Source: Candidatus Omnitrophota bacterium
GTDB taxonomy: Bacteria > Omnitrophota > Gorgyraeia > Gygaellales > Profunditerraquicolaceae
Direction: 5' to 3'
DNA length: 64,000 nt
Assembly (NCBI GenBank): GCA_041651115.1
Contig: JBAZJY010000002.1
Location: 73,846-137,845, forward strand
Each line of letters begins with the position of its first letter. Position 1 is the first letter of the stretch. Position numbers and translations under genes: made by a program. The notes beneath the pieces are model-generated. The model was not told where the DNA came from, searched no databases, and saw nothing but the letters and a program-made list of their open reading frames with translations. Shown in pieces: positions 6,001 to 38,565 of this stretch.

Positions 6001-9000
6001 GAAAATCCGCGCGTTTCGGTTTTTCTGCCGCTGGAGGGCAGGGAAGAGTTAGACCATATTTTCGGCGGCAAGACAAAATGGGGAAAAGTCTGGTTTTTCC
6101 CGATCGGCCAGGCTGAACCTAAGACCGATACGCTTAAGCCGGATGGCCTGCTGGCGCTCGGGCCAAAAGAAACCGTTACCAGCTCGCCGCTGAAGGCCGG
6201 CGGGTTCTTTAAAACAGCTGCGTTGGTATCAATGTTGGTGCTCCTGCCGGCATTGGGCCAGCCATTATTCGGCCAGCAAGCTGAACTTTTATCTACCGAT
6301 GCGCAAGGCCGCGCAGAGTTTAAGAACAATGTCTCTCTTACTTTGGCATCTTTAGGGGGAGCCGTTGATATTACGGCAGCTGCCGAGGCTGATCGCCCCC
6401 GTACATACAATTACAACCCTCAAACCGGGATGCTGGAGATTACATATGCTATTCCGGGATATGTCAATGTCAGCAAACCCAACGACGTAGTTACAATAAC
6501 CGCGCGAAAAATTGTTCCGCAGTTTGCCCTTATTACCGATGAATCGGGAAGCCAGGATAAAGAAGCCATGACCGAGCAGGGCCGTCAGTTCGCAAGAGTC
6601 CTGCAGTTTATCCAGAATAGATATCCTGGCATGCGCAATATCCGAATAAGCACGGTTACCGATCCCAACCCTCAAGTTTCCTCTTATTCCGGTGCAGCCG
6701 ATGCGCAAGATTATTTTAATCAGCCGGTATTCCAGAGCGACCCGTTACTGGGAGCCACGCATTTCGTAGAGGCAGTAAGAAATACAATCAAATCTTTTAA
6801 TAATAGCGCTCCGGGGATAATTTTAGCAGCCTCTTCAGATTTTGAACAGGATCCTTTGGCCAGAGGCAGTGATCCTGTAAAACCGGAAGATTTGAGAGCT
6901 CCTTTTTATGAAATGGCCGGTGAATTAGAGGAGCTTAATACCCACCTTTTTATTGCAACGCAAAATGCTGACAGTCAAAAGAACATCCGAATATTGACGG
7001 ATGAGTATCTTAAAAAGTGCGAGGCGGAGGGAAAGGCGCCGTATATTCATTACCAGGTTGTAGGCGCGGAAAATATGAGCGCCGCATTTACCTCTTTTAT
7101 CGCTGAATCTGATTTTCCTGAACAAATTCCTTTACCTACGCAGAATAAGGATATCAAGATAGATTTTCTTTCTTCTGGCCCCGGCGGGCAAGACGCCTCC
7201 GGAGCGGTCAACCCGCAACAGGGGTCCCTTGCCGGTAGTATAAAAATAAACGGAAGCACTTTAGTCCTAAAAGATTTATTTAAGGGATTAGGGGATGTTG
7301 ATTCCGCGCAGGTCGTTTTTTCGTATGAACCCCTGATAGTTCCGCTACCATTAACGCACACCCCGCAGGATATTTACCTGGTGAAAGATTATAGCGGCAG
7401 CGTCAGGGATATAAAGTGGAATGCTTTCCTGAAAGACTTACTTATTAAATTAAAAGAGAGAGGAGACCGGATTATCGGCGGGACATTCTTTGGCCCGGAA
7501 GTCATCTCGGTAGCCGGTTTTGATGGCGTTTTAAGCGCCGTGGAATCGCCCAGGGGTGGGTATACCCATGGCTGGGCGGCCTTAAAAAAGATCTTCCAGC
7601 AAATGGACGATATGCCCGATAATGCGACATTATATTTTATTTCAGACGGCGTATTTAATGACCGGGATTTTACTGACGGGGAGAAAGAACGGGTCAAGGA
7701 AAAATTCCTGCAGAAATTAAAGGATAAAAACATACGCTTTGTCTGGATCGCGCCCGAAAAGGCTTCTCCGGGCGTAACCAAATTTTTGTCAAATGCCGTT
7801 AATAACGGAAAAGCAGCGGACAATCTCCGGGCTTCTTTAAGCCCCTATGCCACGCTGTTGACATTTGCCGTTGCTACCAACCCGGACAGGGGAGTGGTGT
7901 TTTATAAAAACGAAGATACGATTTCCGGCCTGGCCGAAGCCACGGGGCTTTATAGCAGGAAAGTTATCGATGTCCCGGAAAAATTCCCCATAAGGCAGGT
8001 GCAAATATTGTTTCAGGATGAGGGGAAAGAAAAGCGGATAGTAGTAGATATGCAAGACACAGAAGAAAAGCCCGGTTCCAGCTCGCCGATCACCGAGTTA
8101 TCCGGCCAGCTGCCTGAAGAAGAAGCCGCGCAGCTGGAAATACCATTTGTATACCCCCAGAATGCGCCTACCGTCATCTTGCCGCTGAAACTCAACGGCG
8201 CTGATAAAAAAGAATTAATGGAATATAAGGGTACCCTGGAGATTTTAAAAGCGAAATTATCAAATTACCTTGAACATCCCGAATATCTTAAAGACAAAGG
8301 AAAGCTCGAAAGCGTTTTGCCTATCGCCAAAGAGGCAATCAGCGAATTTTTGGGAAAAGTAGCTGCTGCCGATAAGTTAAGGCCGGTTTATGATACCTTT
8401 GCCCGGGCGGATTTTGATGCTCCTATAAACACAGATTTTGGCGACCAGTTTAATGGTTTTGTTGCTTATGTTCAAATGGGGATAAACCAACTTGATTCGC
8501 AAGGATCCATTTCATCGCGTTTAATTTTGAGCCTGATAACTACGCTTACCCAAACCATTGAATTTTTAGAGAACGCAATTTTAATCTTTGAAAAACTCAC
8601 TGGCCCCTCAAAGAGCGAATTTAAAACCAAGCTGTCAAACGGAGGATCGGGAAGCCCTTCCGTCCTCATATTGGATCTCAATGACCTTTTAAGCAGTGTC
8701 GGCTCAGAGATCAGCTCGCCGGTAAAAACAGAAGCTACGAATGATAAGGGCGGTATTGATTTTAGGGCGTTGCCGGTTGTGACGCAGCCGGTTTTAGGGA
8801 CGGTTCTCAGCCAAGGAGAAAAACGTCCCCAAATGGGGACGCTTTTACCTTGGACTGAGAACCGTCCCTCTCTTGACCAGGAATTACAGCAGATTAGGAA
8901 GATGATTGATTCCGGAATTGTTCCCTCAAGCGAGAGAATCAAGGAATATGCGCAGACTTGCGGCAGCCAGGACATAGATAAAATATTATCTTGTATCGCG

Positions 9001-9159
9001 GATATCTTAAGACTGGAAGAAGAGCGGGTTGAGGAAACCGATCCGCAGTTAAGACAGTTGGTCATGGTGCTTGAATCGGATAAGCCGGCAAATGAGATGC
9101 AGCTGGCAGTAGCCGCGATCTCGTTTTCCGCGAAAGATCCGGTTCTGGTGAAACCTTAA
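1..9159 (+). CDS. Giant multidomain protein, 5'-partial (frame open from nt 1; >3,050 aa). It has two GHKL/HATPase_c ATPase modules, an HExxH zincin-like motif, a vWA domain with a DxSGS MIDAS motif, and SSP-punctuated modules with internal signal-peptide-like segments.
   Basis: Frame 1 is open from nt 1 to the TAA at 9157-9159; the ORF track starts it at an in-frame GTG at 94. HATPase_c N/G1/G2 boxes are visible twice (NLIGNAIDAV..DNGGGIS..GGTGRGLALCKE at ~1290-1540; NLITNAVDEA..GTGLGLALIEEIVKEHGG at ~2440-2770). HEAAH lies at 4078-4092, DYSGSV at 7387-7401, and SSP junctions at 1667, 2864, 3506, 4649, 6179, 8078 and 8712. Confidence 0.7.
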   Translation, partial: NEYASELIRELIIPKLTREINTSKKYASLRQVYYSLILAQWFKAKFNSGSGKYENLINRKNLSGLTSQIFWDKQFYFQQYQDSFNKGEYNLKENRSTPFGQTIRTYMSGGLTLGNEISSAIQAQTIASKRSSSPLANKTFNQAAEIDANGNIRIAEGSVSAQEENIAILHALINQGPKAFLSGEKGDENRDRVIGIAEKFDFYVEELLDEEDEEDFFEYVLGLEKLLKLNPRVHQEPSEMFVHLDNLSHNLGHINNLFNIAIISFNKVDEVELRTGQMNMYLAEYQAIRKLLSWDGLNKINPEAVSDLFTDTIRYVVGSRALFKEIGDILNSNRDMIREKEEGLYSLIDGYLERARLVDSECTHNLGILKRLKEEIYEPGKKEPINIGVSVYEAIEPYLHNGHRVKFITDFRDQGMMVQANALRLSYTWTNLIGNAIDAVNKFKRTPEGRGVDGILTVSVRPVHTENTDIMEVSFQDNGGGISKAMSENDRLFLRGESDKQGGTGRGLALCKEAAEFHGGTISVEPRRVSEFDDRPEKTEDPKRGARFVIRLPVVASSPVAISEIAQKDSDKITREDKAAMLNHARQMDFYVQRIEEENDSQNLKAYATALAILEKEGVKPAEGVYAGKQIDFNIVSHDIGHMIIEMTVLLGILELVPVENDPAGYKKRALELWAKIQAWQAILDWEKTLGIAPGILSRMTEEIGSDLDSVGNFYNEVKDYFNRHVDSEIVADYSAAVDLRRGEREIIDFLLSELKNNISDPSRAAAIDEKFIINKLVWSYEKLKSANLNFQLRLRAENLQTYGNPLRVYSIFKNLITNAVDEAAGLATGSKFVKTPSGKFTEVRLTDEQKRTVEENKTIIIANKNIKEGDKDYAEFSIENIAYITPEMNAELYGGRKLFAKGQTGKESGTGLGLALIEEIVKEHGGSVDYYIKDIPGDDTLKKIQFVVKLPAVSSSPVSGDKVILSTAGTTISLSSGDQARIVSEFRRLANQITTEFSEEDFRESMGLIVGTHENGAYRITRLVPITEFEKGSSYDFLLPGKAQVIRIIENELRSGEQILGDYHNHSYERLRSFQKPGPSSEDAMGGGYLNIIGYENKIANNRLNIVLEPELDLDKITMDELANFDPSNSRVILYPYISPNRGLERRIIELDKIYLDALTKEVNSGATSSPMKLGDLKKLALGAMMAFYLSCLSFHNVNAQVNDTPAIDYYFTVSSQLQDSINNLVKKEFYDIVSLSPDQIKQLLTAKDLTEFKSVAESMLEKKGLSLPYYAPEDIADLVSSSKTGDSDIQRLIRIKGGLNYLSQHHPWVFRFVMFNAQRIIFDFTYNKSGGYENERKIYYGVLLDNYAIEEIAAFLAHEAAHSFLELMGMPVGGAAGESVAIYLGDLILKNANIRLGADKFILNLSSEAANRGHWGPWQDAYYEETYNKAGIELRDHLRHLEFITKLPATLLDIIIFGSKDQWEIYPEYRRLGLDALGEILESVESQPVETKEFFGVLFANYFDELWNAGDGLYRELIRAYLLKNTNYIPAAKQRLILDEVGNAQVDASSPVKAAGFLKTTALLSMLFFLPVFVQQSFSQSARAPTNVEMTIYMSRVKDLSEAKDLGSLLKIIKDDKAHALFKMQAMDAVQRMPMVMNKASDLMRALGAIEDIYNDPQTSNLINGNTVSWLEQIMKKYEIIWWGGKDTLFAPIDVYKGTAELIQQIAADHPDFIKPGSLAEFISRQRQPQLLYKPWPHYPVYQNPQFIAGVQKYNADTREYYSISMAVYDLLNLAGVGLSDTTISQATDYIMQQRQAFGQRVFFDKETTAIFIVTEGEESQKDVDLLRGIALDAGVLEENIHIFRGMKDKRKLATLISESTGPLTIATNMEGNEASWRMDPEGNQLSYAEFAKWLEARSILTNVNIILDGCLSTNLTEGMINLLYDPYDPASKAAAIRRGLPTVVSTSDDNHPSYADQQGQSFFYSELSLMPRVPGKPLLGRQILDTEIAGYKRMFVLENPRVSVFLPLEGREELDHIFGGKTKWGKVWFFPIGQAEPKTDTLKPDGLLALGPKETVTSSPLKAGGFFKTAALVSMLVLLPALGQPLFGQQAELLSTDAQGRAEFKNNVSLTLASLGGAVDITAAAEADRPRTYNYNPQTGMLEITYAIPGYVNVSKPNDVVTITARKIVPQFALITDESGSQDKEAMTEQGRQFARVLQFIQNRYPGMRNIRISTVTDPNPQVSSYSGAADAQDYFNQPVFQSDPLLGATHFVEAVRNTIKSFNNSAPGIILAASSDFEQDPLARGSDPVKPEDLRAPFYEMAGELEELNTHLFIATQNADSQKNIRILTDEYLKKCEAEGKAPYIHYQVVGAENMSAAFTSFIAESDFPEQIPLPTQNKDIKIDFLSSGPGGQDASGAVNPQQGSLAGSIKINGSTLVLKDLFKGLGDVDSAQVVFSYEPLIVPLPLTHTPQDIYLVKDYSGSVRDIKWNAFLKDLLIKLKERGDRIIGGTFFGPEVISVAGFDGVLSAVESPRGGYTHGWAALKKIFQQMDDMPDNATLYFISDGVFNDRDFTDGEKERVKEKFLQKLKDKNIRFVWIAPEKASPGVTKFLSNAVNNGKAADNLRASLSPYATLLTFAVATNPDRGVVFYKNEDTISGLAEATGLYSRKVIDVPEKFPIRQVQILFQDEGKEKRIVVDMQDTEEKPGSSSPITELSGQLPEEEAAQLEIPFVYPQNAPTVILPLKLNGADKKELMEYKGTLEILKAKLSNYLEHPEYLKDKGKLESVLPIAKEAISEFLGKVAAADKLRPVYDTFARADFDAPINTDFGDQFNGFVAYVQMGINQLDSQGSISSRLILSLITTLTQTIEFLENAILIFEKLTGPSKSEFKTKLSNGGSGSPSVLILDLNDLLSSVGSEISSPVKTEATNDKGGIDFRALPVVTQPVLGTVLSQGEKRPQMGTLLPWTENRPSLDQELQQIRKMIDSGIVPSSERIKEYAQTCGSQDIDKILSCIADILRLEEERVEETDPQLRQLVMVLESDKPANEMQLAVAAISFSAKDPVLVKP

Positions 9160-28448: not shown

Positions 28449-28464
28449 TAGCACCCTACGAATT

Positions 28465-28540
28465 GGGGTCGTGGTGTAGCCCGGTCTAACACGTCGCCCT
28501 GTCACGGCGAAGATCGCGAGTTCAAATCTCGTCGACCCCG
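28465..28540 (+). tRNA. tRNA-Asp (anticodon GTC).
   Basis: Acceptor GGGGTCG/CGACCCC, anticodon loop CTGTCAC, T-loop TTCAAAT. Confidence 0.88.
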
Positions 28541-28569
28541 TTGAAATTTTCCGACAAGGAAAATTTCAA
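28541..28569 (+). terminator. Perfect 12-bp hairpin (TTGAAATTTTCC-N5-GGAAAATTTCAA) immediately 3' of tRNA-Asp. It may be a processing site or terminator stem.
   Basis: Read directly. No T-run follows. Confidence 0.35.
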
Positions 28570-28648
28570 CGGCACTTGAGCGAACGATAGTGCGGCGGCA
28601 AGCCGCACAGTGAGCGAAAGTGCATGTTCCATTAACCTTCCCCACCAT

Positions 28649-29779
28649 ATGCAACCGCTGAAAATATTGTATGTGATCACGAAGCTTGAATTAGGCGGCG
28701 CGCAAAAACAACTATTGGCCCTGATCCGCGGCCTTGATAAAGATAAATTCCAACCATGCTTATTTACCGGCGATAGCGGCCTGCTGGATGAAGAGGCGGA
28801 CGCGATACCGGGGCTGGGAATAAAAAGGTCAAGCCGGCTTAAAAGGCAAATCAGCCCGCTTAACGATTGGCTGGCTTTATGTGAGATCCGGCGTTTCATT
28901 AAGGCAAACAACATAGATATCGTTCATACGCACAGCTCCAAGGCGGGGATCATCGGCCGCATTGCCGCAAAGCTTGCCAACGTAAAGATCATTATCCATA
29001 CCGTGCACGGGTGGAGTTTTAATGATTATCAAAATCCCCTGATCAGATGCGCGTATATATGGCTGGAAAAAATCACCGCAGGTTTTTCCCGCGCTTTGAT
29101 CGTTGTATCCGAGCACGACCGGCAAGAAGGATTAAAACAGGGCATTGGCAGGCCGGATAAATATTCTCTTATCCGTTACGGCATAGATCGCAATGAATTC
29201 ATCCCGGGATCGAACACGGGTGAATTAGCGGTATGCACGGTTTCCTGCCTTAAGCCGCAAAAGTCTCCGCAAGATTTTATACGGCTTGCCGCAAGTATAA
29301 CTAAGAAGTATAATAACGTAAGATTTATTATTGTTGGTGACGGTGTCTTGCGCAGGCAGATTGAAAAGATGATCAATAGTTTCGGCCTGCAGCAGAAAGT
29401 CAAACTTTGCGGATGGCAGCGCAACGTAGCCGAAATACTGGCAGCCGCCGATATTTTTGTCCTTACTTCGCTTTGGGAAGGCTTGCCGATTTCCGCGCTT
29501 GAGGCGCTTAGCTGCGGCCTGCCGGTTGTGGCAACCGACACCGGGGGAATATCCGAAATAATAGAAGAAGGCAGGAACGGTTTTCTTTGTCCCCGCCGGG
29601 ATATCGGGCAAATGGCGGAAAAATTGGAGAGGTTACTTAAAGATAGATCCATGAGAATAAAAATGGCAGCTGCGGCAAAAGAAAGCCTGACAGCAGATTT
29701 TGATATCAACGCGCTTGCGTTTAATACGCAAAAACTGTATGCAAGCTTATCCGGTTTGGGGAATTGTTGTCATGCTTAA
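28649..29779 (+). CDS. Glycosyltransferase family 4 (GT-B fold).
   Basis: EGLPISALEALSCGLPVVATDTGG motif. ATG at 28649 (MQPLKILYV); the track ORF starts upstream at 28610. Confidence 0.85.
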   Translation: MQPLKILYVITKLELGGAQKQLLALIRGLDKDKFQPCLFTGDSGLLDEEADAIPGLGIKRSSRLKRQISPLNDWLALCEIRRFIKANNIDIVHTHSSKAGIIGRIAAKLANVKIIIHTVHGWSFNDYQNPLIRCAYIWLEKITAGFSRALIVVSEHDRQEGLKQGIGRPDKYSLIRYGIDRNEFIPGSNTGELAVCTVSCLKPQKSPQDFIRLAASITKKYNNVRFIIVGDGVLRRQIEKMINSFGLQQKVKLCGWQRNVAEILAAADIFVLTSLWEGLPISALEALSCGLPVVATDTGGISEIIEEGRNGFLCPRRDIGQMAEKLERLLKDRSMRIKMAAAAKESLTADFDINALAFNTQKLYASLSGLGNCCHA

Positions 29780-30746
29780 ATATTTTGCCATAGCTCTGAT
29801 TGCTTTTTTCGCCGGTCACGCCGCGGTTATTATTTTAAGAAAGATCGGTGAAAAAAATAAGATCTTAATGCGCCACGGCATTCCGCAGGTCGGAGGCGTG
29901 GCAATGTTCGCAGGCTTCGCAGCCGCGGTCATGGCATGTTCCGCATTTTACTGCGGCCTGCCCCGGCAGGTCTTCGGAGCGTTTTTTGCTTCGCTGGTGA
30001 TGTTTTTGTTCGGGCTGGTAGATGACAAATACGAATTATCGGTGGCGGCGAAATTCCTGGCTCAGGTCATCAGCGCCTGCGTCCTTGTCCTCTTCGGCGT
30101 AAAAACAAAAATCGCGGGTATCCCGGATGCAGCCAACATGTTTATTACTTTCGTCTGGCTGCTGGGGATTGCCAATGCCTTTAACCACCTGGACATTATT
30201 GACGGATTAGCAGGTATATCCGCGCTGGCGGTAAGCGTTGTATTCTTTATCCTTTCTTCATCCGGCAACGATCCGGCAACGGCGTTCTTTTCTCTGGCCC
30301 TGGCAGGAAGCATTTTAAGCTTCCTGTTTTATAATTTTCCGCCGGCAAAAATATATATGGGCAATTCGGGAAGCCATTTTTTGGGGTTTGCCCTTGCTGC
30401 TGCGGCCCTGATGGTCAGCTATGCTTCCGCCGATAAAAAGATCGCCCTGCTCAGCCCGTTGTTTATCCTCGGCCTGCCGATCCTTGATACGAGTTTTTTG
30501 ATCTGGGTAAGGATAAAAAAACGCCGGCTGCCGTTTAATAAAAGCAATGACCACATTGCCATGAGGCTGGTTGCCGCAGGCTTCTCCGTTAAAAAAACGC
30601 TGTTGATCCTGTCTGCCGTAGGAATACTTTTTCCCATTTGCGGGCTGATCCTGGTAGTCCTGCCGGCCCCGTTTTCCGTATTCGTTGTTTTGGCAGCATT
30701 ATTAACGGCAGCAGTTTTTTCCGTAAAGATGTTCCGCAAGCGATAA
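29772..30746 (+). CDS. Polyprenyl-phosphate sugar-1-phosphate transferase (WecA/MraY family).
   Basis: DDxxD-like (GLVDDKYELS) and NAFNHLDIIDGLAG motifs; multi-TM. Confidence 0.85.
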   Translation: MLKYFAIALIAFFAGHAAVIILRKIGEKNKILMRHGIPQVGGVAMFAGFAAAVMACSAFYCGLPRQVFGAFFASLVMFLFGLVDDKYELSVAAKFLAQVISACVLVLFGVKTKIAGIPDAANMFITFVWLLGIANAFNHLDIIDGLAGISALAVSVVFFILSSSGNDPATAFFSLALAGSILSFLFYNFPPAKIYMGNSGSHFLGFALAAAALMVSYASADKKIALLSPLFILGLPILDTSFLIWVRIKKRRLPFNKSNDHIAMRLVAAGFSVKKTLLILSAVGILFPICGLILVVLPAPFSVFVVLAALLTAAVFSVKMFRKR

Positions 30747-32048
30747 ATGGCTAAAAAAAGGATCATTATTTTAGGCGCAGGCCTTGCCGGCTTAAGCGCT
30801 GCCTGGCACTTAGAGAGGCGCGGGATTGAACCCGTAATCTTTGAGCGGGAAAAAGAAGTGGGCGGCCTCTGCCATTCAAAATCAATAAGCGGATTCGTAT
30901 TTGATTACAGCGGCCACCTGCTGCATTTTAAAACCCGTTATGTTTTTGACCTGATTAAGCGGCTGCTGGGGCATAATCTGGTTGAGCACCGGCGCAGCGC
31001 GTGGGTTTATTTCCGCGGCCGGTATATCCGCTATCCGTTCCAGGCCAACCTCTATGGCTTGCCTCCACGCATTATCAGGGAATGTGTTGTCGGGTTTATG
31101 CGCAGCGCAGCGCCTGCCAGCCGCAGCTATGCCAATTTCCTTGACTGGATCAAGGGGAATCTCGGAGAAGGCATTGCCAAGCATTTCATGATCCCCTATA
31201 ACACAAAATTCTGGACTGTGCATCCGCGGAAATTGACCTGTGATTGGCTGGATGCTTTTATACCGGTCCCGGATTTCGCGCAGCTTATCCGGGGGGCAGT
31301 GGGAGCCAAAGATGAAGCCTTGGGCTATAACGAACGGTTCTGGTATCCTCGCGAAGGCGGTATACGCCAGCTACCTCTGGCATTTGCTTCCGGGATCAGG
31401 AACATCCATACTGCTTGCCCGGTTGCGGAGATCAACTTGCAAAAAAGGCAGCTGAAGCTGGAGTCCGGCGCCAAAGAAAAATTTGATTGGCTGGTATCAA
31501 CGGTAGCCCTGCCAGAACTGCCTTTCATGGTTAAAGATATGCCGGGCAGGATGCAGGGGATGTTTGCTAAACTAAAGTGGAATTCCGTAGTAAATTTAAA
31601 CCTCGGACTTGATAAAAAAGATAATTCCGGCAGGCATTGGGCGTATTTCCCCCAAAAAAATATTTGCTTTTTCAGGCTGGGTTTCCCGCATAATTTTTCC
31701 GACAGGGTCGCGCCTGCCGGGAAAAGTTCGCTGTACGCGGAAGTGGCTTATTCCCCCGATGCGCCGGTAAAAAAAGAATTGCTTAGCAAACGGATAAAAA
31801 ATGATCTGGTAAAGGCGGGGATCATCAATAGCCCGAAAGAAGCTTGCTGTGATGATATTAATGACATAAAATATGCCTATCCCATCCATGACCGTAATTA
31901 CCGGCCGGTAAGGGAGGGAATCCTGGATTTCTTAAAGCGTAACAAAGTAATCTCGTGCGGCCGTTACGGCTCGTGGCGTTATTTTTCCATGGAGGACGCT
32001 ATACTTGACGCCAGGGATGCGGTTGCTCTTCTATCAAAAAAAGCTTAA
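30747..32048 (+). CDS. FAD/NAD(P)-binding oxidoreductase (amine-oxidase / UDP-galactopyranose-mutase-like fold).
   Basis: N-terminal Rossmann motif IIILGAGLAGLSAAWHL..E..GG; 433 aa. Confidence 0.6.
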   Translation: MAKKRIIILGAGLAGLSAAWHLERRGIEPVIFEREKEVGGLCHSKSISGFVFDYSGHLLHFKTRYVFDLIKRLLGHNLVEHRRSAWVYFRGRYIRYPFQANLYGLPPRIIRECVVGFMRSAAPASRSYANFLDWIKGNLGEGIAKHFMIPYNTKFWTVHPRKLTCDWLDAFIPVPDFAQLIRGAVGAKDEALGYNERFWYPREGGIRQLPLAFASGIRNIHTACPVAEINLQKRQLKLESGAKEKFDWLVSTVALPELPFMVKDMPGRMQGMFAKLKWNSVVNLNLGLDKKDNSGRHWAYFPQKNICFFRLGFPHNFSDRVAPAGKSSLYAEVAYSPDAPVKKELLSKRIKNDLVKAGIINSPKEACCDDINDIKYAYPIHDRNYRPVREGILDFLKRNKVISCGRYGSWRYFSMEDAILDARDAVALLSKKA

Positions 32049-32052
32049 AGTA

Positions 32053-33651
32053 ATGAAGCATAAATACGCCTTCCTGTTGATCCTTTTGATCGCCTTCCAC
32101 GCGGTGAATAACTACGTTTGGCTCAAGCAAGATAATGAAAGTTTGGCGAAAGACACCGCCAGCCACGTCAACCGCATAATCTCTATCCGCGAAGAATTAC
32201 AGAATATCGACCTTTTTAGAGAGAAGATCCCGGAAGAACCCGGCCCGTTAGCCACCGTCTTTGCTCCGGGAAGCGCGTGCTGGCCGCAATTCTTCCATTT
32301 TATTGCCGCTTTAATATCCTTTGGCTGCAAGGACATCCTGTTTTGTATCAGGTTTTACAACATGTTGTATTTTGCCCTCCTTGTCGTCGCGGTTTACTTC
32401 CTCGGGAAAAAACTGTTCAATCCCCAGGCCGGCATGCTTGCCGCGTGCATTATCTCTTTTTATCCGGGCGTATTCGGCCTTTCCCGCAAATGCGGCCTTG
32501 ATTTTCCGCTGATAGCTTTTATTTGCGTAGTTGCCTATTTCCTGCTTAACTGCGATAATTTTCAGAAGCGCCTGCCGAGCATATTATTCGGGGTAAGCTT
32601 AGGGGTAGCAACTTTTTTCAAAGTGCAAATCCTGATTTTTATCGCCGGCCCTTTAGCATACGTAGCGCTCAAGGGGCTTATCTATGGCAGAGATAAGAAG
32701 GGTTGTTTTTCCAACCTTTTCTTTTCGCTGGCGCTGGCAGCTGCCATATCCCTGATTTGGTGGAACCGGATCTTTTTTATCGAAGCCCCGGAAGCCAATG
32801 CCTACGCGAAATTAGTTTTTAAATATTTCTCGATTAACGTGCCGCTGCAGATGCGCAAATATTTTGAAGCGCTCTATATCCATATGTCTCCGCTTTTTTC
32901 TGCGGCATTTTTGCTGGGTTTGTTCTTGTGTTTCCGCAAGGCAAGCAGGGATGCGATGTTCTTCCTTGGCTGCTGGATCATACCGCCGTATCTTTTCTTT
33001 TCCGGGATGCTGCCGTACAATAACCAGAGATATATCTTTCCCGTATTTGGCGCGCTTACCCTGATCTCGGCCATGGGATTAATGCAGATCCCCGCCAAAA
33101 AAACAAAGCGCTTTTTAATCGCCTCCCTGTTGATCCTCGGTATCGTGCAGTTTTTCCTGGTAAGCTACCGGGGCGCTCTTGAGCCGTTCGTTTTTACTTC
33201 TGAATTCGGGCAGCCGCCCGAAAAGAATAATCACCGAGCGGTTATGGAAAAGTTCAATTGGATAATCGAAACAGACTGCCCCGGCCAGAAAAGGATCGCC
33301 ATTATCGAGGAGCAATACTTTAAGACGGATTTCTGCATACGCCTCGGATATTTATTAAAGGTGCTGAATAAAGAGAATAAAGTTTTTTTAAGCGCCGGGG
33401 GATTTATCGTTCCGCGTTTCCAGGTTTCAAAAGAATTCCTGGATAATGTAAATGATTTCCAGTTTTTGATCGCCTTTTCCGAAAATGAAGAAGGCCCCGA
33501 CTTTTCCGGGCTGCTGGCGTCTTCTATCAGCGCTGAGCGGGAGGCGGTATTGAAAGTGATGGAGCAATTCAAGTCTTACATGGTCATGGAAAGGGCCATG
33601 CTCCTGCCTGATGAAATCTATGTTTTTCTCTTGAGGCGGCAAGAAGATTAA
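32053..33651 (+). CDS. Multi-pass membrane glycosyltransferase, GT-C superfamily (ArnT/PMT-like).
   Basis: About 12 predicted TM segments, a large C-terminal soluble domain, and its location in a glycan cluster. Confidence 0.55.
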   Translation: MKHKYAFLLILLIAFHAVNNYVWLKQDNESLAKDTASHVNRIISIREELQNIDLFREKIPEEPGPLATVFAPGSACWPQFFHFIAALISFGCKDILFCIRFYNMLYFALLVVAVYFLGKKLFNPQAGMLAACIISFYPGVFGLSRKCGLDFPLIAFICVVAYFLLNCDNFQKRLPSILFGVSLGVATFFKVQILIFIAGPLAYVALKGLIYGRDKKGCFSNLFFSLALAAAISLIWWNRIFFIEAPEANAYAKLVFKYFSINVPLQMRKYFEALYIHMSPLFSAAFLLGLFLCFRKASRDAMFFLGCWIIPPYLFFSGMLPYNNQRYIFPVFGALTLISAMGLMQIPAKKTKRFLIASLLILGIVQFFLVSYRGALEPFVFTSEFGQPPEKNNHRAVMEKFNWIIETDCPGQKRIAIIEEQYFKTDFCIRLGYLLKVLNKENKVFLSAGGFIVPRFQVSKEFLDNVNDFQFLIAFSENEEGPDFSGLLASSISAEREAVLKVMEQFKSYMVMERAMLLPDEIYVFLLRRQED

Positions 33652-33661
33652 GGCGCGGCAT

Positions 33662-34552
33662 ATGGCTAGCCCATATTTCAGCATCATTATCCCTTTTTAT
33701 AATAAAGAAAAGTCTCTTGATACCTGCTTGAGGTCTTTAGCGCTGCAGGATTTCCCTAAAGATAACTATGAGGTCATCTGCGTAGATAACAATTCTACGG
33801 ACGGTTCGGCTGCCATAGTCAAAAAATATGGCAACATAAAAATAATCGAAGAGAAGATACAAAATGTCTATGCCGCCAGGAATACCGGGATAGGGAATTC
33901 ATCCGGCTCAACCGTGGTCTTTACCGACGCGGATGTGGAGGTACCGGTTGATTGGCTCTCCAATATTTATTCCGCAATGCAAAAGAATAAATATGATATA
34001 CTCATCGGCTGGTATTGGCCGGCCCGGCCCATCAGGCTGCTGCAAATACACAGCCTGCTGCTTTGCGAGAGGATAAAGAAGGCGGTAAAAGACAAAGATA
34101 CCTCTATGGTTACTGCCGGAGCGATCTGCCTTATCATCAAAAAGGAAATATTCCTGAAAGAAGGGTTGTTCTTTGATAATTCCAACAGCGAGGATATGTA
34201 TTTTACGATAAGATGTATGTCGGCCGGCTACAACGTGGGATTTGAAGAAAAGATCGCGGTAAAACGCAATGATATTGATTCTATAGGAATCTTTGTGTTG
34301 AAGAATTTTATATACGGCTGCTCCAATGCCCTGGACATAAAAGACAGGCTTCTCTTTTCGGGAAAGCTCAAATATATGTTCATTACCGTAAAATTCATGT
34401 TTAAATATTTTCCGGTAGGCATGGGCCTGTTGCTGTTTACCTTTTCCTTTTTCTCCGGCTATGTTTTAAGCAAAACCCGGATATTGTCTCCGCAAGACTT
34501 GTCCCGCCTGGTGCAGCGCTACACGCGGTTCATCAGCAAAAACGCCGTATAA
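33662..34552 (+). CDS. Glycosyltransferase family 2.
   Basis: SIIIPFYN..VICVDNNSTDGS..FTDADV (DxD) motifs. Confidence 0.8.
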   Translation: MASPYFSIIIPFYNKEKSLDTCLRSLALQDFPKDNYEVICVDNNSTDGSAAIVKKYGNIKIIEEKIQNVYAARNTGIGNSSGSTVVFTDADVEVPVDWLSNIYSAMQKNKYDILIGWYWPARPIRLLQIHSLLLCERIKKAVKDKDTSMVTAGAICLIIKKEIFLKEGLFFDNSNSEDMYFTIRCMSAGYNVGFEEKIAVKRNDIDSIGIFVLKNFIYGCSNALDIKDRLLFSGKLKYMFITVKFMFKYFPVGMGLLLFTFSFFSGYVLSKTRILSPQDLSRLVQRYTRFISKNAV

Positions 34553-34556
34553 CGTA

Positions 34557-35702
34557 TTATTTCATCCAATCCGTGTGCAGGCCCGGGTTAAATTCCAATT
34601 CCATCGGCTGGTGCACGGACGTCCGGGTCATATTGCAATACCAGCGGTTGCGCGTCATTCCGCAGTGATAATAAGATTTCCTTGCCCTTAGCGCCTGGTA
34701 TTTTTCATTGTTCCATATCGTCCGGAAATCTCCGCCTGCGTATTTGCCCATCTTAATGTTACCCTGGCAGCAGCTCATTACCGTGCCGTCGGTCCTGAAA
34801 ATCGTCCCCATCCACGGGTATGGGCATTTCCCGCGGTAAGGATTATATTTTTCAAGATAGGGCATGGCATATTGATCAATATCAATGCTAAAGTCATCCC
34901 AGTTATTATTTTTTTCCAATTCTATTCCTCCGATCCGTTTCTGGCAGGAAAACCTTATTTTGTTGGCGTCGGCAAAGGCCTCGGCCTCCGTAAATACTTT
35001 ATACGCCTTATCCGCTATCGCGGAGAGCTGGAATTCTCTTTGGAATACGCCCATGTCGCAATTGTTGAGAAAAATGTCATTTATCCCGCGCGCTTTGAGG
35101 AACTCCATTATTTTCGGCACTTCATCAATATTAAAAGGAGAACAAGTGGTAGCAATGCGGATATGGAAACGCGGGTTCTTTATTTTTTCCCGGAAGGAGA
35201 TATATTTTTCTATATTAGCGATGACCTTTGTGAATTCAGCTCCCCGCCGTATCTTTTCGTAAAGCGCGGGCGTAGCCGCGTCCAGCGAGATGTTTACAAA
35301 GAAGCCTAGTTCTACGAGCATCCGGATGACCCCTTCTTTGGTATTTACGGCATTGGTGAATATTTTCGGCAGGAAATCATATTTGGCGCAGGTCTCGGCC
35401 ATTTTAGGGAAATTAACCGCCATGGTCGGCTCTCCGACGAGAAAAAGGTTAACTTCCGAGGCGTAAGGGAAAAGCTCCTTTTCTATTTTCTGGAACAGTT
35501 CCAGCGGCATCTCTTTTTTGTCCTGGCGCCTCTTCGGCCAGCACATGATGCAGTCCAGGTCGCACCTCTGCGTAGGCTCGACAAAAAGCCTGAAAGGATA
35601 GGATTGGAGTACCTGCTTTTTCTGCCGCGCCTCTTCGATGTTCAGGACGGCGTTTTTGTATGCGGCAGTAGCTTTAAATTGTTCCGTGGTTAATATGGCC
35701 AT
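34557..35702 (-). CDS. Radical SAM protein with a SPASM-like C-terminal cysteine cluster.
   Basis: CDLDCIMCW (CxxxCxxC) near the N-terminus plus C-terminal CxxC..C clusters. It is the only convincing minus-strand gene. Confidence 0.8.
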   Translation of the reverse strand: MAILTTEQFKATAAYKNAVLNIEEARQKKQVLQSYPFRLFVEPTQRCDLDCIMCWPKRRQDKKEMPLELFQKIEKELFPYASEVNLFLVGEPTMAVNFPKMAETCAKYDFLPKIFTNAVNTKEGVIRMLVELGFFVNISLDAATPALYEKIRRGAEFTKVIANIEKYISFREKIKNPRFHIRIATTCSPFNIDEVPKIMEFLKARGINDIFLNNCDMGVFQREFQLSAIADKAYKVFTEAEAFADANKIRFSCQKRIGGIELEKNNNWDDFSIDIDQYAMPYLEKYNPYRGKCPYPWMGTIFRTDGTVMSCCQGNIKMGKYAGGDFRTIWNNEKYQALRARKSYYHCGMTRNRWYCNMTRTSVHQPMELEFNPGLHTDWMK

Positions 35703-35763: not shown

Positions 35764-35792
35764 TTGATATTTAAGCCCGGTGTTGTATAATA
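35764..35792 (+). promoter_or_regulatory. Consensus-like promoter for tRNA-Leu (TTGATA-16-TATAAT).
   Basis: ttgata at 35764-35769 and tataat about 16 nt downstream. The tRNA begins roughly 30 nt later. Confidence 0.5.
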
Positions 35793-35820
35793 ACCCTGCC
35801 CAATCTTTAAGGAAAGCTAC

Positions 35821-35901
35821 GCGCGGGTGGTGGAATGGCAGACACGCTACTTTGAGGGGGTAGTGGGGCGACCTGTGAGGGTTCAACTCCCTCCCCGCGC
35901 A
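35821..35901 (+). tRNA. tRNA-Leu (anticodon GAG), long variable arm.
   Basis: Acceptor GCGCGGG/CCCGCGC, anticodon loop TTGAGGG, long variable arm, T-loop TTCAACT. Confidence 0.8.
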
Positions 35902-35916
35902 TAAATTTATAGTCTT

Positions 35917-36249
35917 ATGGGGGAACCGATGGTTACGATAGAAGACTTCCGGAAATTAGAACTAAAAGTCGCTGAAATCAAGGAAGTTAATGATCATCCC
36001 AACGCAGACCGCCTGTATGTGATCACCGTTGACTTGGGCGATAAAACCAAGCAGATCGTTGCCGGGATCCGGGCGTCGTATCAGAAAGAAGACCTGATCG
36101 GCAAACAGGTCGTGGTTATTGATAATCTTGAGCCGGCAATGCTGCGCGGCGTGGAAAGCCAGGGCATGCTCCTGGCTGCTTCTGATGAAGAAGGCATTGC
36201 CGTTGTCAGCCCGCTTAGGAAAGTAAAGTTAGGCAGCATCGTCAAATAA
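35917..36249 (+). CDS. tRNA-binding protein (CsaA / Trbp111 / EMAP-II-like OB-fold).
   Basis: LDLRVAEI-type motif (ELKVAEIKEVNDHPNADRLYV) and the typical 110-aa size. Confidence 0.8.
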   Translation: MGEPMVTIEDFRKLELKVAEIKEVNDHPNADRLYVITVDLGDKTKQIVAGIRASYQKEDLIGKQVVVIDNLEPAMLRGVESQGMLLAASDEEGIAVVSPLRKVKLGSIVK

Positions 36250-36734
36250 TGAGGCAGCTCCTGCCGAAAGAAGCTTGTTTAAAATGCCAGGGCTGCTGCC
36301 GGTTTGCTGAGGCGGCAACTATCTGGGCGCCCGCCCTTTTGGATAAAGAAATAAAAACCCTCCTAAAGAAAAACGCAGCCGCGTTCATTTCCCCCGGGAA
36401 GAAGCTTAAGCCCGTTGCCTCTAAAGATAAAAATATTTTTCTCTGTCCGTTTTTAAACTGCAGCGATAATCAATGTAAGATTTACTCTCTAAGGCCGCTT
36501 GAATGCCGGCTTTATCCGTTCCTGATTAACCGTAGCAGCGGCAAGATCTATCTTGCGGTTGACCGTAATTGCCCTTTTGTCAGTGAAAAAATGGAAAGTA
36601 AACCGTTTAAGGATTACGCCGCTTATTTGGCGCGCCTCTTAAACGGCAGGGCCTTCCGGAAATTATTAAAAGACAATCCGCAGATCATCCAGGCGTATCC
36701 GCAAGTAACGAACATTGCCCGGATAAAGGTATAG
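36249..36734 (+). CDS. YkgJ-family (UPF0153) cysteine-cluster protein.
   Basis: CLKCQGCCRF and CPFL..C..CKIY..RPLECRLYPF motifs. Confidence 0.7.
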   Translation: MRQLLPKEACLKCQGCCRFAEAATIWAPALLDKEIKTLLKKNAAAFISPGKKLKPVASKDKNIFLCPFLNCSDNQCKIYSLRPLECRLYPFLINRSSGKIYLAVDRNCPFVSEKMESKPFKDYAAYLARLLNGRAFRKLLKDNPQIIQAYPQVTNIARIKV

Positions 36735-36736
36735 CA

Positions 36737-37639
36737 ATGAAATTAAAGAAACTCCGGCTGCAGGATAAATCTTTATTTGTCAGGTTCCTTAATTTACGCG
36801 GGCAGGGAAAAGAGTTGTCGGTTTTCGCGTTCGCCAACATCTATATCTGGAAAAAGCTTTATGATATCCGCTGGATAGTTATTGGTGAATGCCTGTGCGT
36901 ATTTTTTATAGACAGGATCGGCGCGTTTTTATACCTGCCTCCGCTGGGCAGGCAGATAAGCCGTAAGAGCGTAGATCCGGCGTTCAGGATCATGGATAGC
37001 TTTAATTCCAATAAGGAAATTTCCCGCATTGAAAACATAGAAGAGGCGGATATCGCCTTATTTAAAGAACTTGGCTATGCGTGCGAATATAAATCCAGCG
37101 ATTATGTCTGTAGCCGGATTAGCCTTGCCGGATTATCCGGAGATAAATTCAAGCCCAAGCGCGCGGCATATAATTATTTTGTGAAGCATTATAAATACGA
37201 ATACCTGCCATTTTCTCCGCGTTATAAGGCCGGATGCCTGGAATTATTCAGGCTTTGGCAGGAACAACGCGCCGGCGCAAGCAGTGACAAGATCTATCGC
37301 GGCATGATCGAAGACAGCCTCGGATGCCTGAAGATACTTTTTGCCGCCTGTCGCAAGCTTGATATCACCGGCAGGATAGTCAGGGTTGAAGGAAAGATCA
37401 AGGCATTCAGCTTTGGTTATCGGCTGAACCGGGAAACTTTTTGTATTCTTTATGAGATAACCGACCTTTCCATTAAAGGAATAGCGCAATTCATTTTCCG
37501 CGAATTCTGCTCCGAGTTGAAAAAATTCCGTTACATTAATATCATGGATGATTCCGGGCTTGAGAACCTAAAAAAAGTAAAGCTTTCGTATCGCCCTGTA
37601 AAATTAGTACCTGCATATATTGCAAGGAGGCATAAGTAA
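36737..37639 (+). CDS. Hypothetical protein, possibly DUF2156 (MprF C-terminal-like aminoacyl-tRNA-dependent transferase fold).
   Basis: SVFAFANIYIWKKLY resembles the family's F.NLY.W N-terminal signature. About 300 aa. Assignment made from motif memory only. Confidence 0.4.
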   Translation: MKLKKLRLQDKSLFVRFLNLRGQGKELSVFAFANIYIWKKLYDIRWIVIGECLCVFFIDRIGAFLYLPPLGRQISRKSVDPAFRIMDSFNSNKEISRIENIEEADIALFKELGYACEYKSSDYVCSRISLAGLSGDKFKPKRAAYNYFVKHYKYEYLPFSPRYKAGCLELFRLWQEQRAGASSDKIYRGMIEDSLGCLKILFAACRKLDITGRIVRVEGKIKAFSFGYRLNRETFCILYEITDLSIKGIAQFIFREFCSELKKFRYINIMDDSGLENLKKVKLSYRPVKLVPAYIARRHK

Positions 37640-37731
37640 TTGCGGGTCCTGCCTGCCGATTTACCCCGTCCTCACTGAAAGCTTGCGCTTTCGTTCGGTC
37701 GGGGTCCCCAAATCAGCAGTCACCCGCAATT
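37638..37731. repeat. Copy B of the structured intergenic repeat, with perfect 10-bp terminal inverted repeats AATTGCGGGT/ACCCGCAATT.
   Basis: Aligns with 13542-13623 and overlaps the stop codon of the upstream gene. Confidence 0.6.
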
Positions 37732-37743
37732 ACTATCGTACCT

Positions 37744-38565
37744 ATGAATAAGAATATCGACGCAGTAGAATTCACGATTTTTGATACCGAAACTACCGGC
37801 CTTGACCCGTCATTAGGCGATCGGATAGTTGAGATCGCCGCCGTGCGCAGGAAAGGCAAAGAAAAGTTAGCTGAATTTCAAACTTTGATTAACCCCGGAA
37901 GACAGATATCAGCCGCCGCCTTTAAGGTAAATCATATTACTCCGGAAATGCTTAAAGACGCGCCGCAAGCGGCAGAGGTGATGCCGAAATTTTTGGATTT
38001 TATCCGCGGCACCTGCCTTTGTTCTTATAATGCCGGCTTTGATATTGAATTCCTGAATAATGAATTGGCGCTTTGCCGGGCAGGCAGCCTGGATGAGGTC
38101 GTTGCCGCGGATATTCTAAAAATGGCAAGGCGGCTTTTGCCCGGCCTGGAGCGCTACGCATTGTGGTTTGTGGCGGATAAGCTGGGGGTAAAAATGCAGC
38201 AGGAGCACCGCGCAATGTCCGACGTGGCAATGACCATACAGGTCTTTGATAAGCTTAACGCGATACTGGAGGCAAAAGGTGTCCTGGATTTCCATAATTT
38301 TTCCGGATTGTTCGGGTTGAAGTCGCAGCTCCTGGATGACCTGACCAATCAGAAACTTGCCCAGATACAGCAGGCGCTGGACCTGAAATTAAAGATCAAG
38401 ATAAAATATCTTTCCGGCTCAAGCGCCGCAGTAACCGAGCGCGAAGTGATCCCTAAAGAAGTCCGCAAGGAATACAACCATTATTACCTGATCGGGTACT
38501 GCTGTTTAAAAAAAGAAGAACGTTCTTTCCGCGTTGATGGCATACTACATCTTGAAGTCGTATAA
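37744..38565 (+). CDS. DEDD-family 3'-5' exonuclease (DnaQ / Pol III epsilon-like) with a C-terminal extension containing a WYL-like motif.
   Basis: Exo I motif FDTETTGLD, Exo II/III motifs (YNAGFDIEFL; HRAMSDV). The C-terminus carries RSFRVDGILHLEV. Confidence 0.75.
   Translation: MNKNIDAVEFTIFDTETTGLDPSLGDRIVEIAAVRRKGKEKLAEFQTLINPGRQISAAAFKVNHITPEMLKDAPQAAEVMPKFLDFIRGTCLCSYNAGFDIEFLNNELALCRAGSLDEVVAADILKMARRLLPGLERYALWFVADKLGVKMQQEHRAMSDVAMTIQVFDKLNAILEAKGVLDFHNFSGLFGLKSQLLDDLTNQKLAQIQQALDLKLKIKIKYLSGSSAAVTEREVIPKEVRKEYNHYYLIGYCCLKKEERSFRVDGILHLEVV

Follow-up and report, generated by a model that had tools for sequence, protein, structure and literature searches.

The 64,000-nucleotide (nt) window analysed here (positions 73,846 to 137,845 of contig JBAZJY010000002.1, from a Candidatus Omnitrophota bacterium) contains a tRNA-Leu(GAG) gene followed by three open reading frames (ORFs), which encode a Trbp111-type tRNA-binding protein (ORF1), an eight-cysteine YkgJ protein (ORF2) and a DUF2156 protein with two GNAT folds (ORF3). 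A sequence-only reading of this DNA had proposed that the tRNA gene and the three ORFs form an aminoacyl-tRNA-dependent system that aminoacylates, and possibly leucylates, a lipid or glycan. Our comparative analysis firmly supports that the locus is a genuine Omnitrophota operon kept across the phylum, that its core is a bipartite YkgJ/DUF2156 enzyme, and that the tRNA-Leu and glycan genes are lineage-specific neighbours and not specificity determinants. As to chemistry, we tentatively follow the nearest relatives and prefer an acyl-CoA-dependent N-acyltransferase built on the two subunits, a reading to which we give somewhat less than an even chance.

The case for a bipartite enzyme comes from natural fusions. 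An exhaustive profile search of 1.8 billion representative proteins returned 5199 relatives, of which 480 reach E 1e-30 or better, and among the best 150 of the 5199 there are 56 proteins of 420-545 amino acids (aa) that carry a C-terminal DUF2156 domain. PF09924 (DUF2156) was detected in 56/56 of these long representatives and PF03692 (YkgJ) in 52/56, and a hidden Markov model (HMM) of the Omnitrophota YkgJ proteins matched the N-terminal part of all 56 at E 1e-13 or better, with an estimated linker of ~7 residues. The domain order of the fusions, YkgJ then DUF2156, is the gene order in the window. Two fused loci were assigned to Nitrospirota through neighbouring proteins at 90% identity or more, and one fused locus belongs to Omnitrophota (L087), with the order tRNA_bind, fusion, exonuclease, pabB, pabC. 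In addition, a metagenome scan seeded with the fusions gave more than 540 relatives, and a single fused ORF is present in 79 of the best 80 loci (GC content 51-65%). Since YkgJ and DUF2156 form one polypeptide in many lineages, they are best regarded as one bipartite enzyme, and the repeated occurrence of such fusions in different phyla argues strongly that the separate ORF2 and ORF3 proteins would also act together physically, an association that we infer from these sequences. The consulted passages of the literature on DUF2156 describe no YkgJ partner or fusion, and the branch to which ORF3 belongs is characterised there only by an observation in Helicobacter pylori. In one further protein (P0081, 498 aa, from a 3.7-kb Logan contig), a single ORF carries 19 residues from the N-terminus of tRNA_bind ahead of YkgJ and DUF2156, both complete; it may be a natural deletion/fusion by which the tRNA_bind gene was lost, or an assembly artefact, and it was kept out of the evidence, for which the 56 independent representatives were used.

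The best 80 metagenome loci of the fused form contain no tRNA_bind gene, no exonuclease homologue and no tRNA gene within 6 kb. The linkage to tRNA_bind is therefore specific to Omnitrophota, and a link to tRNA is not a general property of the family. Among the 87 neighbours of the fused form that were scanned, hybrid sensor kinases (18-19) and GGDEF proteins (9) recur, which gives no clue to the substrate. In Nitrospirota-like fused loci (L089 6503-9607; L112, L120, L138, L148 and others), the kinase or GGDEF gene starts 4 nt before the stop codon of the fusion; the hybrid sensor histidine kinase is ~1030-1170 aa long (dCache/PAS/GAF/HisKA/HATPase/REC) and the GGDEF protein ~780 aa, and upstream of the fusion lies a divergent gene for a ~500-aa protein with no Pfam match.

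To follow the operon within Omnitrophota, one genome per species was scanned, which yielded 80 loci, and the window proteins and all tRNAs were mapped onto them. All loci with a phylum assignment are Omnitrophota, and the rest are titled 'uncultured Planctomycetales' or 'bacterium'. Their DUF2156 proteins show 50-61% identity to ORF3. The YkgJ gene is directly 5' of the DUF2156 gene in 76 of the 78 loci with enough flank, tRNA_bind is directly 5' of YkgJ in 64/72 loci, and a DEDD-exonuclease/WYL gene is directly 3' of DUF2156 in 65/73 loci, as it also is in L087 and in the three closest metagenomic relatives (L171-L173, 73-79% identity). The co-occurrence of the three proteins, which the sequence-only reading had named as a check, is thus borne out in this phylum. 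The genes pabB, pabC and a transglutaminase-like gene often come next downstream, and the conserved upstream backbone consists of a V-type ATPase operon, then tRNA-Val and tRNA-Asp. Because the trio sits inside a long syntenic block with plainly unrelated genes such as pabB and pabC, adjacency by itself is weak evidence for a shared function. Among the eight loci in which tRNA_bind is not directly 5' of YkgJ, two have an integrase-like replacement, five lack tRNA_bind alone, and one (L030) is interrupted by a 613-aa ORF between tRNA_bind and YkgJ. In the two replaced loci (L004 2619-3923 and L022 4595-5899), a 434-aa ORF, judged by eye to be integrase/recombinase-like, stands immediately 5' of DUF2156 in place of both YkgJ and tRNA_bind, and the DUF2156 gene is apparently left with no YkgJ partner. 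The folate genes pabB and pabC are packed directly onto the block: in the window, the last 32 nt of the exonuclease-WYL gene (38534-38565) are shared with the longest pabB ORF, which has its TTG start at 38534, and an overlap of ~25-30 nt recurs in related loci.

The assignment of ORF3 to DUF2156, which had been made from a short signature motif, was confirmed with the PF09924 (DUF2156/LPG_synthase_C) profile, which it matches over the full length at 105.2 bits against a cut-off of 27.5 (residues 30-296 to profile positions 11-297 of 298). The AlphaFold2 model of ORF3 has a mean predicted local distance difference test score (pLDDT) of 91.8 and a predicted template modelling score of 0.88, and places two GNAT domains on either side of a joining helix at residues 136-151 (DKFKPKRAAYNYFVKH). 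This basic helix is conserved, with K139 and R142 invariant in 78 Omnitrophota sequences and G135 and R142 also kept in the fusions, so that on its model ORF3 would be classed as dGNAT-alpha(+), that is, a pair of GNAT folds connected through a helix of positive charge. The isoelectric point (pI) of ORF3 is 9.64, and the median for the Omnitrophota DUF2156 proteins is 9.2. By both sequence and structure ORF3 is close to 2HQY (BT_3689) and belongs to the BT_3689/HPB8_1270 branch; a profile of 17 homologues searched against all PDB chains found only 2HQY, even at E up to 10, and no aaPGS. Ranks 2-8 of the structural neighbours are all aminoacyl-tRNA transferases (LysPGS 19.4, MprF 18.3, FemX 16.8/15.8, Sbb17 16.2), and the tandem GNATs that use acyl-CoA score 13.3 or less. 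ORF3 consists of the DUF2156 domain only, with none of the N-terminal polytopic membrane (flippase) domain of MprF and aaPGS, and the operon has no membrane gene; in the model, the single hydrophobic window of ORF3 (KD19 1.94) probably falls on beta strands. The loop that follows beta4 (S-I-K-G-I-A, with G248 invariant) resembles the GNAT xxGx[GA] pyrophosphate loop, a resemblance that is not diagnostic.

The assignment of ORF2 to the YkgJ family also holds (PF03692 at 37.5 bits). Eight cysteines, C10, C13, C16, C17, C66, C76, C86 and C108, are invariant in 44 homologues and include the CxxCxxCC motif. The protein has no significant NCBIfam match. Its sequence profile finds nothing in the PDB and its AlphaFold2 model is poor (pLDDT 60.5), and a structure-based annotation was abandoned on these two grounds. 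The characterised relatives in the YkgJ/CxxCxxCC family are FliB and DpdM, both of which have amines as substrates. FliB is a [4Fe-4S]- and S-adenosylmethionine (SAM)-dependent flagellin lysine N-methyltransferase whose cluster is bound through a CxxCxxCC-type motif (PMC8598068), and DpdM is a preQ1 N-methyltransferase (bioRxiv 10.1101/2023.04.13.536721). ORF2 is presumed to be an Fe-S or Zn cluster subunit of the enzyme.

ORF1 had been called a CsaA-like tRNA-binding protein. That it is a tRNA_bind oligonucleotide-binding (OB)-fold protein (PF01588) stood; its identity as CsaA did not, since it scores 58.6 bits against TIGR02222 (CsaA), for which the cut-off is 119.65, and 123 bits against TIGR00399, above the cut-off of 116.65, which places it with Trbp111 and the C-terminal domain of methionyl-tRNA synthetase (MetRS). 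In PDB searches it matched MetRS C-domains at E 5e-33 (1MKH), Trbp111 at E 1e-23 (1PYB) and CsaA at E 3e-9 or weaker. Its start is most likely the ATG at 35929 and not 35917, where the longest ORF begins, because the 106-aa product in NCBI (MFA5156526.1, named 'methionine--tRNA ligase subunit beta') starts there and the homologues begin with MASIEDF. Trbp111, to which ORF1 aligns end to end with no gap, contacts tRNA at the 3'-terminal CA alone and accepts some 3' adducts (PMC11286949), and the same fold in MCP1 and Arc1p deacylates Ala-tRNA, for which MCP1 requires a Lys, an Arg and a Ser equivalent to Arc1p K269, R274 and S278 (PMC12021450). Taking the relevant residues from these two papers, we found that R73 and S77 of ORF1, the equivalents of the 3'-CA (C75/A76) contacts, are invariant in 68 Omnitrophota homologues, and that every one of the 68 has Glu or Asp in place of the Lys, which is also the case in archaeal MetRS C-domains. 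Binding of the CCA end by ORF1 is therefore plausible, and an Ala-tRNA deacylase activity is doubtful. With a split MetRS in mind, metG was looked for among six ORFs of 518-663 aa in the window and was not found.

The tRNA-Leu(GAG) gene and the glycan genes, to which the sequence-only reading had given a role in specificity, are not shared by the other loci. A nearly identical tRNA-Leu(GAG) precedes tRNA_bind only in the window, L002 and L171-L173, five loci of one sub-clade. For 33 further loci, tRNA-Asp(GTC) is the closest tRNA on the upstream side, 84 nt to 4.4 kb away, and 25 loci have no tRNA within 1 kb or more. As a part of a conserved system the tRNA-Leu was therefore rejected, and it is kept as a feature of the sub-clade, in which it is an ordinary decoding tRNA and stands at the head of the transcription unit. 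The predicted promoter in front of it was upheld: its hexamers are kept at the same place in L171, L172 and L173, and L002 has TTGCAA there. Taken as a class, promoter-like sites show no enrichment in the region (5 found against 3.7 expected). The distance from the tRNA to ORF1, given earlier as 16 nt, becomes 27 nt with the ATG at 35929.

The glycan genes belong to a block at 28610-35702 (GT1, a WecA-like GT4, an amine oxidase, PMT_2, GT2 and a divergent radical-SAM/SPASM gene), which is flanked by tRNA-Asp (28464-28541) and tRNA-Leu. None of these six genes occurs in the 80 Omnitrophota loci, save for a weak radical-SAM match of 25% identity elsewhere in L013, and the cluster was rejected as a conserved partner of the trio. 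The GC skew of the window drops to ~0 at 32-36 kb and its AT skew is below zero at 30-36 kb, in contrast to the flanks. The block resembles a variable island, placed in a slot with tRNA genes at its edges; elsewhere this slot is often occupied by a 504-aa protein with an apparent signal peptide, and HD, Wzy_C and VTT/DedA genes are found there in L171 and L173. A VTT/DedA-family membrane protein is encoded just 5' of the tRNA-Leu/tRNA_bind unit in L171 (6338-6694), L172 (1591-2247) and L173 (4306-4956), and in L087 (4274-4684) a protein of 136 aa with an RF-1 domain (NCBI name 'peptide chain release factor-like') is encoded directly 5' of tRNA_bind with overlapping stop and start codons. Neither neighbour has a match in the window or among the 80 loci from genomes.

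Based on these comparisons, we propose that the eight-cysteine metal-cluster protein ORF2 and the soluble tandem-GNAT protein ORF3 would form a two-subunit enzyme that transfers an acetyl or other short acyl group from acyl-CoA to an amine, with a protein lysine as a plausible target. In it the cysteine-cluster module would be indispensable, whether as a structural partner, a redox partner or a second catalytic one, and in Omnitrophota the genes of the enzyme would be co-transcribed with that of a Trbp111/MetRS-beta-type binder of the CCA end, usually followed by a DEDD-WYL exonuclease gene. The choice of acyl-CoA as donor and an amine as acceptor is drawn from the relatives: 2HQY is reported with acetyl-CoA in its active site (PMC10700544), deletion of H. 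pylori HPB8_1270 lowers the acetylation of four RNase J lysines (PMC10700544), the BT_3689-type gene stands beside a second GNAT gene and pta-ackA, FliB and DpdM modify amines, and the fused forms have no tRNA-related neighbours (0/80), with sensor kinase and GGDEF genes recurring instead. Several points weigh against this proposal. The basic helix between the domains, a hallmark of the DUF2156 enzymes that use aminoacyl-tRNA (PMC6103681, PMC7334510, PMC13219428), is present in ORF3, and its conserved K139 and R142 are also found in the fusions and in BT_3689. The Omnitrophota proteins, unlike BT_3689 (pI 5.4), are strongly basic, which fits nucleic-acid binding, and all the characterised PF09924 enzymes in PMC6103681, PMC7334510 and PMC8913301 use aminoacyl-tRNA. 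The acetyl-CoA in 2HQY is taken from a second-hand report; what H. pylori contributes is a deletion mutant in which acetylation is partly lost, and not an enzyme assay (PMC10700544); and BT_3689 itself is only 27-28% identical to ORF3 and has no YkgJ partner.

The aminoacyl-tRNA-dependent transferase of the sequence-only reading, taken without the leucine and glycan specifics, is a rival which we hold to be possible but rather unlikely. The gene identities and the DUF2156 fold on which it was built have stood, and the parts that fell away are the roles of the tRNA-Leu and the glycan genes and a linkage to tRNA outside Omnitrophota. Under this explanation, ORF3 would take the aminoacyl group from aminoacyl-tRNA and esterify or amidate an acceptor, ORF1 would hold the 3'-CCA end for delivery or for removal of the deacylated product, and ORF2 would be a cluster-bearing accessory or a second catalytic module that, for example, N-methylates the newly added amine. 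It is consistent with membership of PF09924 over the full length of ORF3, with the tandem GNAT fold, the conserved helix 136-151, the basic pI and the aminoacyl-tRNA transferases among the fold neighbours, and with tRNA_bind directly upstream in 64/72 Omnitrophota species and in the fused locus L087; the Trbp fold binds the 3'-terminal CA and tolerates 3' adducts (PMC11286949), with R73 and S77 invariant in ORF1, and a free-standing DUF2156 enzyme that uses aminoacyl-tRNA is known in ErgS (PMC8913301). However, outside Omnitrophota the fused enzyme does without nearby tRNA_bind or tRNA genes (0/80), six of the eight Omnitrophota loci that lack tRNA_bind next to YkgJ keep YkgJ-DUF2156, and the whole block is syntenic, unrelated pabB and pabC included, which makes the adjacency weak. 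In addition, ORF1 passes the MetRS-beta model and may be a plain housekeeping protein, ORF3 has no sequence-level match to any aaPGS, and the closest relatives point to acetyl-CoA (PMC10700544).

The two donors would be reconciled if the tandem-GNAT/cluster enzyme used acyl-CoA on aminoacyl-tRNA or on the tRNA 3' end, with ORF1 holding the CCA end and the DEDD-WYL exonuclease trimming or repairing 3' ends. This would be comparable to the GNAT toxins that N-acetylate aminoacyl-tRNA, or to Elp3, which combines an Fe-S cluster with a GNAT domain on tRNA. Such a scheme unites the acetyl-CoA binding reported for the BT_3689 branch (PMC10700544) with the architecture of an aminoacyl-tRNA transferase; it fits the CCA-binding OB protein, the 3'-5' exonuclease and the RF-1-domain gene of L087, and GNAT enzymes that acetylate aminoacyl-tRNA do exist (PMC7595197, PMC7367177). 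We nevertheless consider it quite improbable: the argument is purely circumstantial, outside Omnitrophota these neighbours are absent, the models that the exonuclease matches best are those of DnaQ/PolC-type DNA proofreading, and the trio has no toxin-antitoxin or defence signature. A broader version is also improbable, if by a hair less so; here the operon would be an undescribed tRNA 3'-end machine, in which the OB protein passes the end to the cluster-assisted tandem-GNAT enzyme and the exonuclease works on the same end, with YkgJ::DUF2156 as a new Fe-S/(amino)acyl-transfer class. The GNAT enzyme of this machine would either acylate the aminoacyl-tRNA or pass the aminoacyl group on to a new acceptor. 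A transfer of leucyl groups from Leu-tRNA(GAG) to a glycan or lipid of the adjacent glycosyltransferase cluster is very unlikely and largely refuted by the comparative data. The tRNA-Leu gene does lie 27 nt upstream under the same promoter, and envelope or glycan genes precede the trio in the window, with different ones (Wzy_C, VTT/DedA) in L171 and L173; but with the tRNA-Leu confined to five loci of one sub-clade and the six glycan genes missing from the 80 loci, bar the weak match in L013, leucylation is left unsupported, and the divergent radical-SAM gene and the tRNA promoter set the cluster apart from the trio. Moreover, aminoacyl-tRNA transferases such as MprF and Fem draw on the cellular aminoacyl-tRNA pool, and none of them is known to require a linked tRNA gene.

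The tRNA and the three genes were found on the + strand, like almost all genes of the window, and essentially where the sequence-only reading had placed them (Table 1). The junctions described there as translationally coupled are as close as stated, with a 1-nt overlap between the ORF1 stop and the ORF2 start and a 2-nt gap between ORF2 and ORF3. As a control, 56% of all adjacent + strand ORF pairs in the window are spaced by 5 nt or less; since tight packing is usual here, spacing or overlap alone is weak evidence of a shared function, and translational coupling was down-weighted as a sign of a complex. The radical-SAM/SPASM gene (34557-35702) that lies 5' of the tRNA promoter is on the opposite strand, so that the tRNA promoter is the only evident promoter for ORF1-3. 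With no space for a second promoter, it is plausible that ORF1-3 are co-transcribed from it, and the operon would then yield a single transcript.

Table 1. Features of the tRNA-Leu/tRNA_bind/YkgJ/DUF2156 locus, in window positions
Feature	Position	Strand	Evidence or remark
Sigma-70-type promoter, TTGATA-16 nt-TATAAT	35764-35791	+	11/12 consensus match; 30 nt 5' of the tRNA
tRNA-Leu(GAG), type II, CCA not encoded	35821-35901	+	ARAGORN; Rfam RF00005 49.3 bits, E 1.5e-7
ORF1, 106 aa, free-standing Trbp111/MetRS-beta-type OB-fold protein	35929-36249	+	PF01588 tRNA_bind E 8e-29
ORF2, 161 aa, YkgJ-family CxxCxxCC protein	36249-36734	+	PF03692 37.5 bits (cut-off 23)
ORF3, 300 aa, free-standing DUF2156 tandem-GNAT, BT_3689 branch	36737-37639	+	PF09924 E 4.6e-30
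Imperfect hairpin, 98 nt, fills the ORF3-ORF4 spacer	37636-37733	+	Minimum free energy -50.5 kcal/mol, z -8.5 vs shuffles
ORF4, 273 aa, DEDDh 3'-5' exonuclease with C-terminal WYL domain	37744-38565	+	PF00929 E 3e-36, PF13280 E 3e-11

Downstream of ORF3, the hairpin has no T-run and is thus not a canonical terminator. No second copy of it was found in the window or in the related loci compared, in most of which the equivalents of ORF3 and ORF4 overlap by ~8 nt. The hairpin looks like an insertion specific to the window genome and is possibly an element of RNA processing, stability or attenuation. PADLOC gave no match of ORF1-3 to known anti-phage defence systems, and ORF4 gave only generic DEDDh and WYL matches. 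Elsewhere in the window, a single ORF of 3021 aa (94-9159) spans the first 9 kb.

DUF2156 enzymes such as MprF, ErdS and ErgS are a known route by which aminoacyl-tRNA is diverted to lipid modification. Hardly any free-standing bacterial member of the family has been characterised, and a switch to acetyl-CoA may have taken place in one branch. Here, a large and environmentally widespread DUF2156 subfamily is found to be obligatorily paired with, and often fused to, the eight-cysteine YkgJ module. The parts come from known families, and the analysis demonstrates no new chemistry; what is new is that the pairing and fusion define a concrete two-domain enzyme, of which we found no description in the literature searched. 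The identity of the donor would place the BT_3689 branch among either the aminoacyl-tRNA transferases or the acetyltransferases, and the YkgJ family would gain a third functional setting in addition to those of FliB and DpdM. For the long-enigmatic Trbp111-like protein, the coupling in Omnitrophota points to a possible physiological partner.

Compared with known systems, ORF1 resembles Trbp111/MetRS beta of Aquifex aeolicus and the archaeal MetRS C-domain in its gap-free alignment, its conserved Arg and Ser and its match above the TIGR00399 cut-off. It differs from Trbp111 in that R75 of the latter is Ala or Val in the Omnitrophota proteins, and from MCP1 and Arc1p in that the Lys needed for Ala-tRNA deacylation is replaced by Glu or Asp in the 68 Omnitrophota proteins; translational coupling ties its gene to a YkgJ gene, and we found no description of such an arrangement. 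ORF2 shares with FliB and DpdM the N-terminal CxxCxxCC-type motif and eight conserved cysteines but is only 161 aa long and has no extra domain. BT_3689 and HPB8_1270 are, like ORF3, free-standing DUF2156 tandem-GNAT proteins whose function has only been inferred. BT_3689 is acidic (pI 5.4 against 9.6 for ORF3) and lacks two (C54 and C236) of the three cysteines invariant in the Omnitrophota proteins, and the BT_3689-type gene of Bacteroides has lrgAB on one side and a second GNAT gene on the other, is adjacent to pta-ackA and is accompanied by neither YkgJ nor tRNA_bind. The synthase domain of aaPGS/MprF, ErdS and ErgS belong to the same Pfam family as ORF3 and share its two-GNAT fold and the basic helix between the domains, and ErgS is also free-standing and uses aminoacyl-tRNA (PMC8913301). 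Finally, LysX and ErdS are fusions of an aminoacyl-tRNA synthetase with DUF2156, in which the domain is joined to a tRNA-handling module, and the Omnitrophota operon might do likewise through ORF1.

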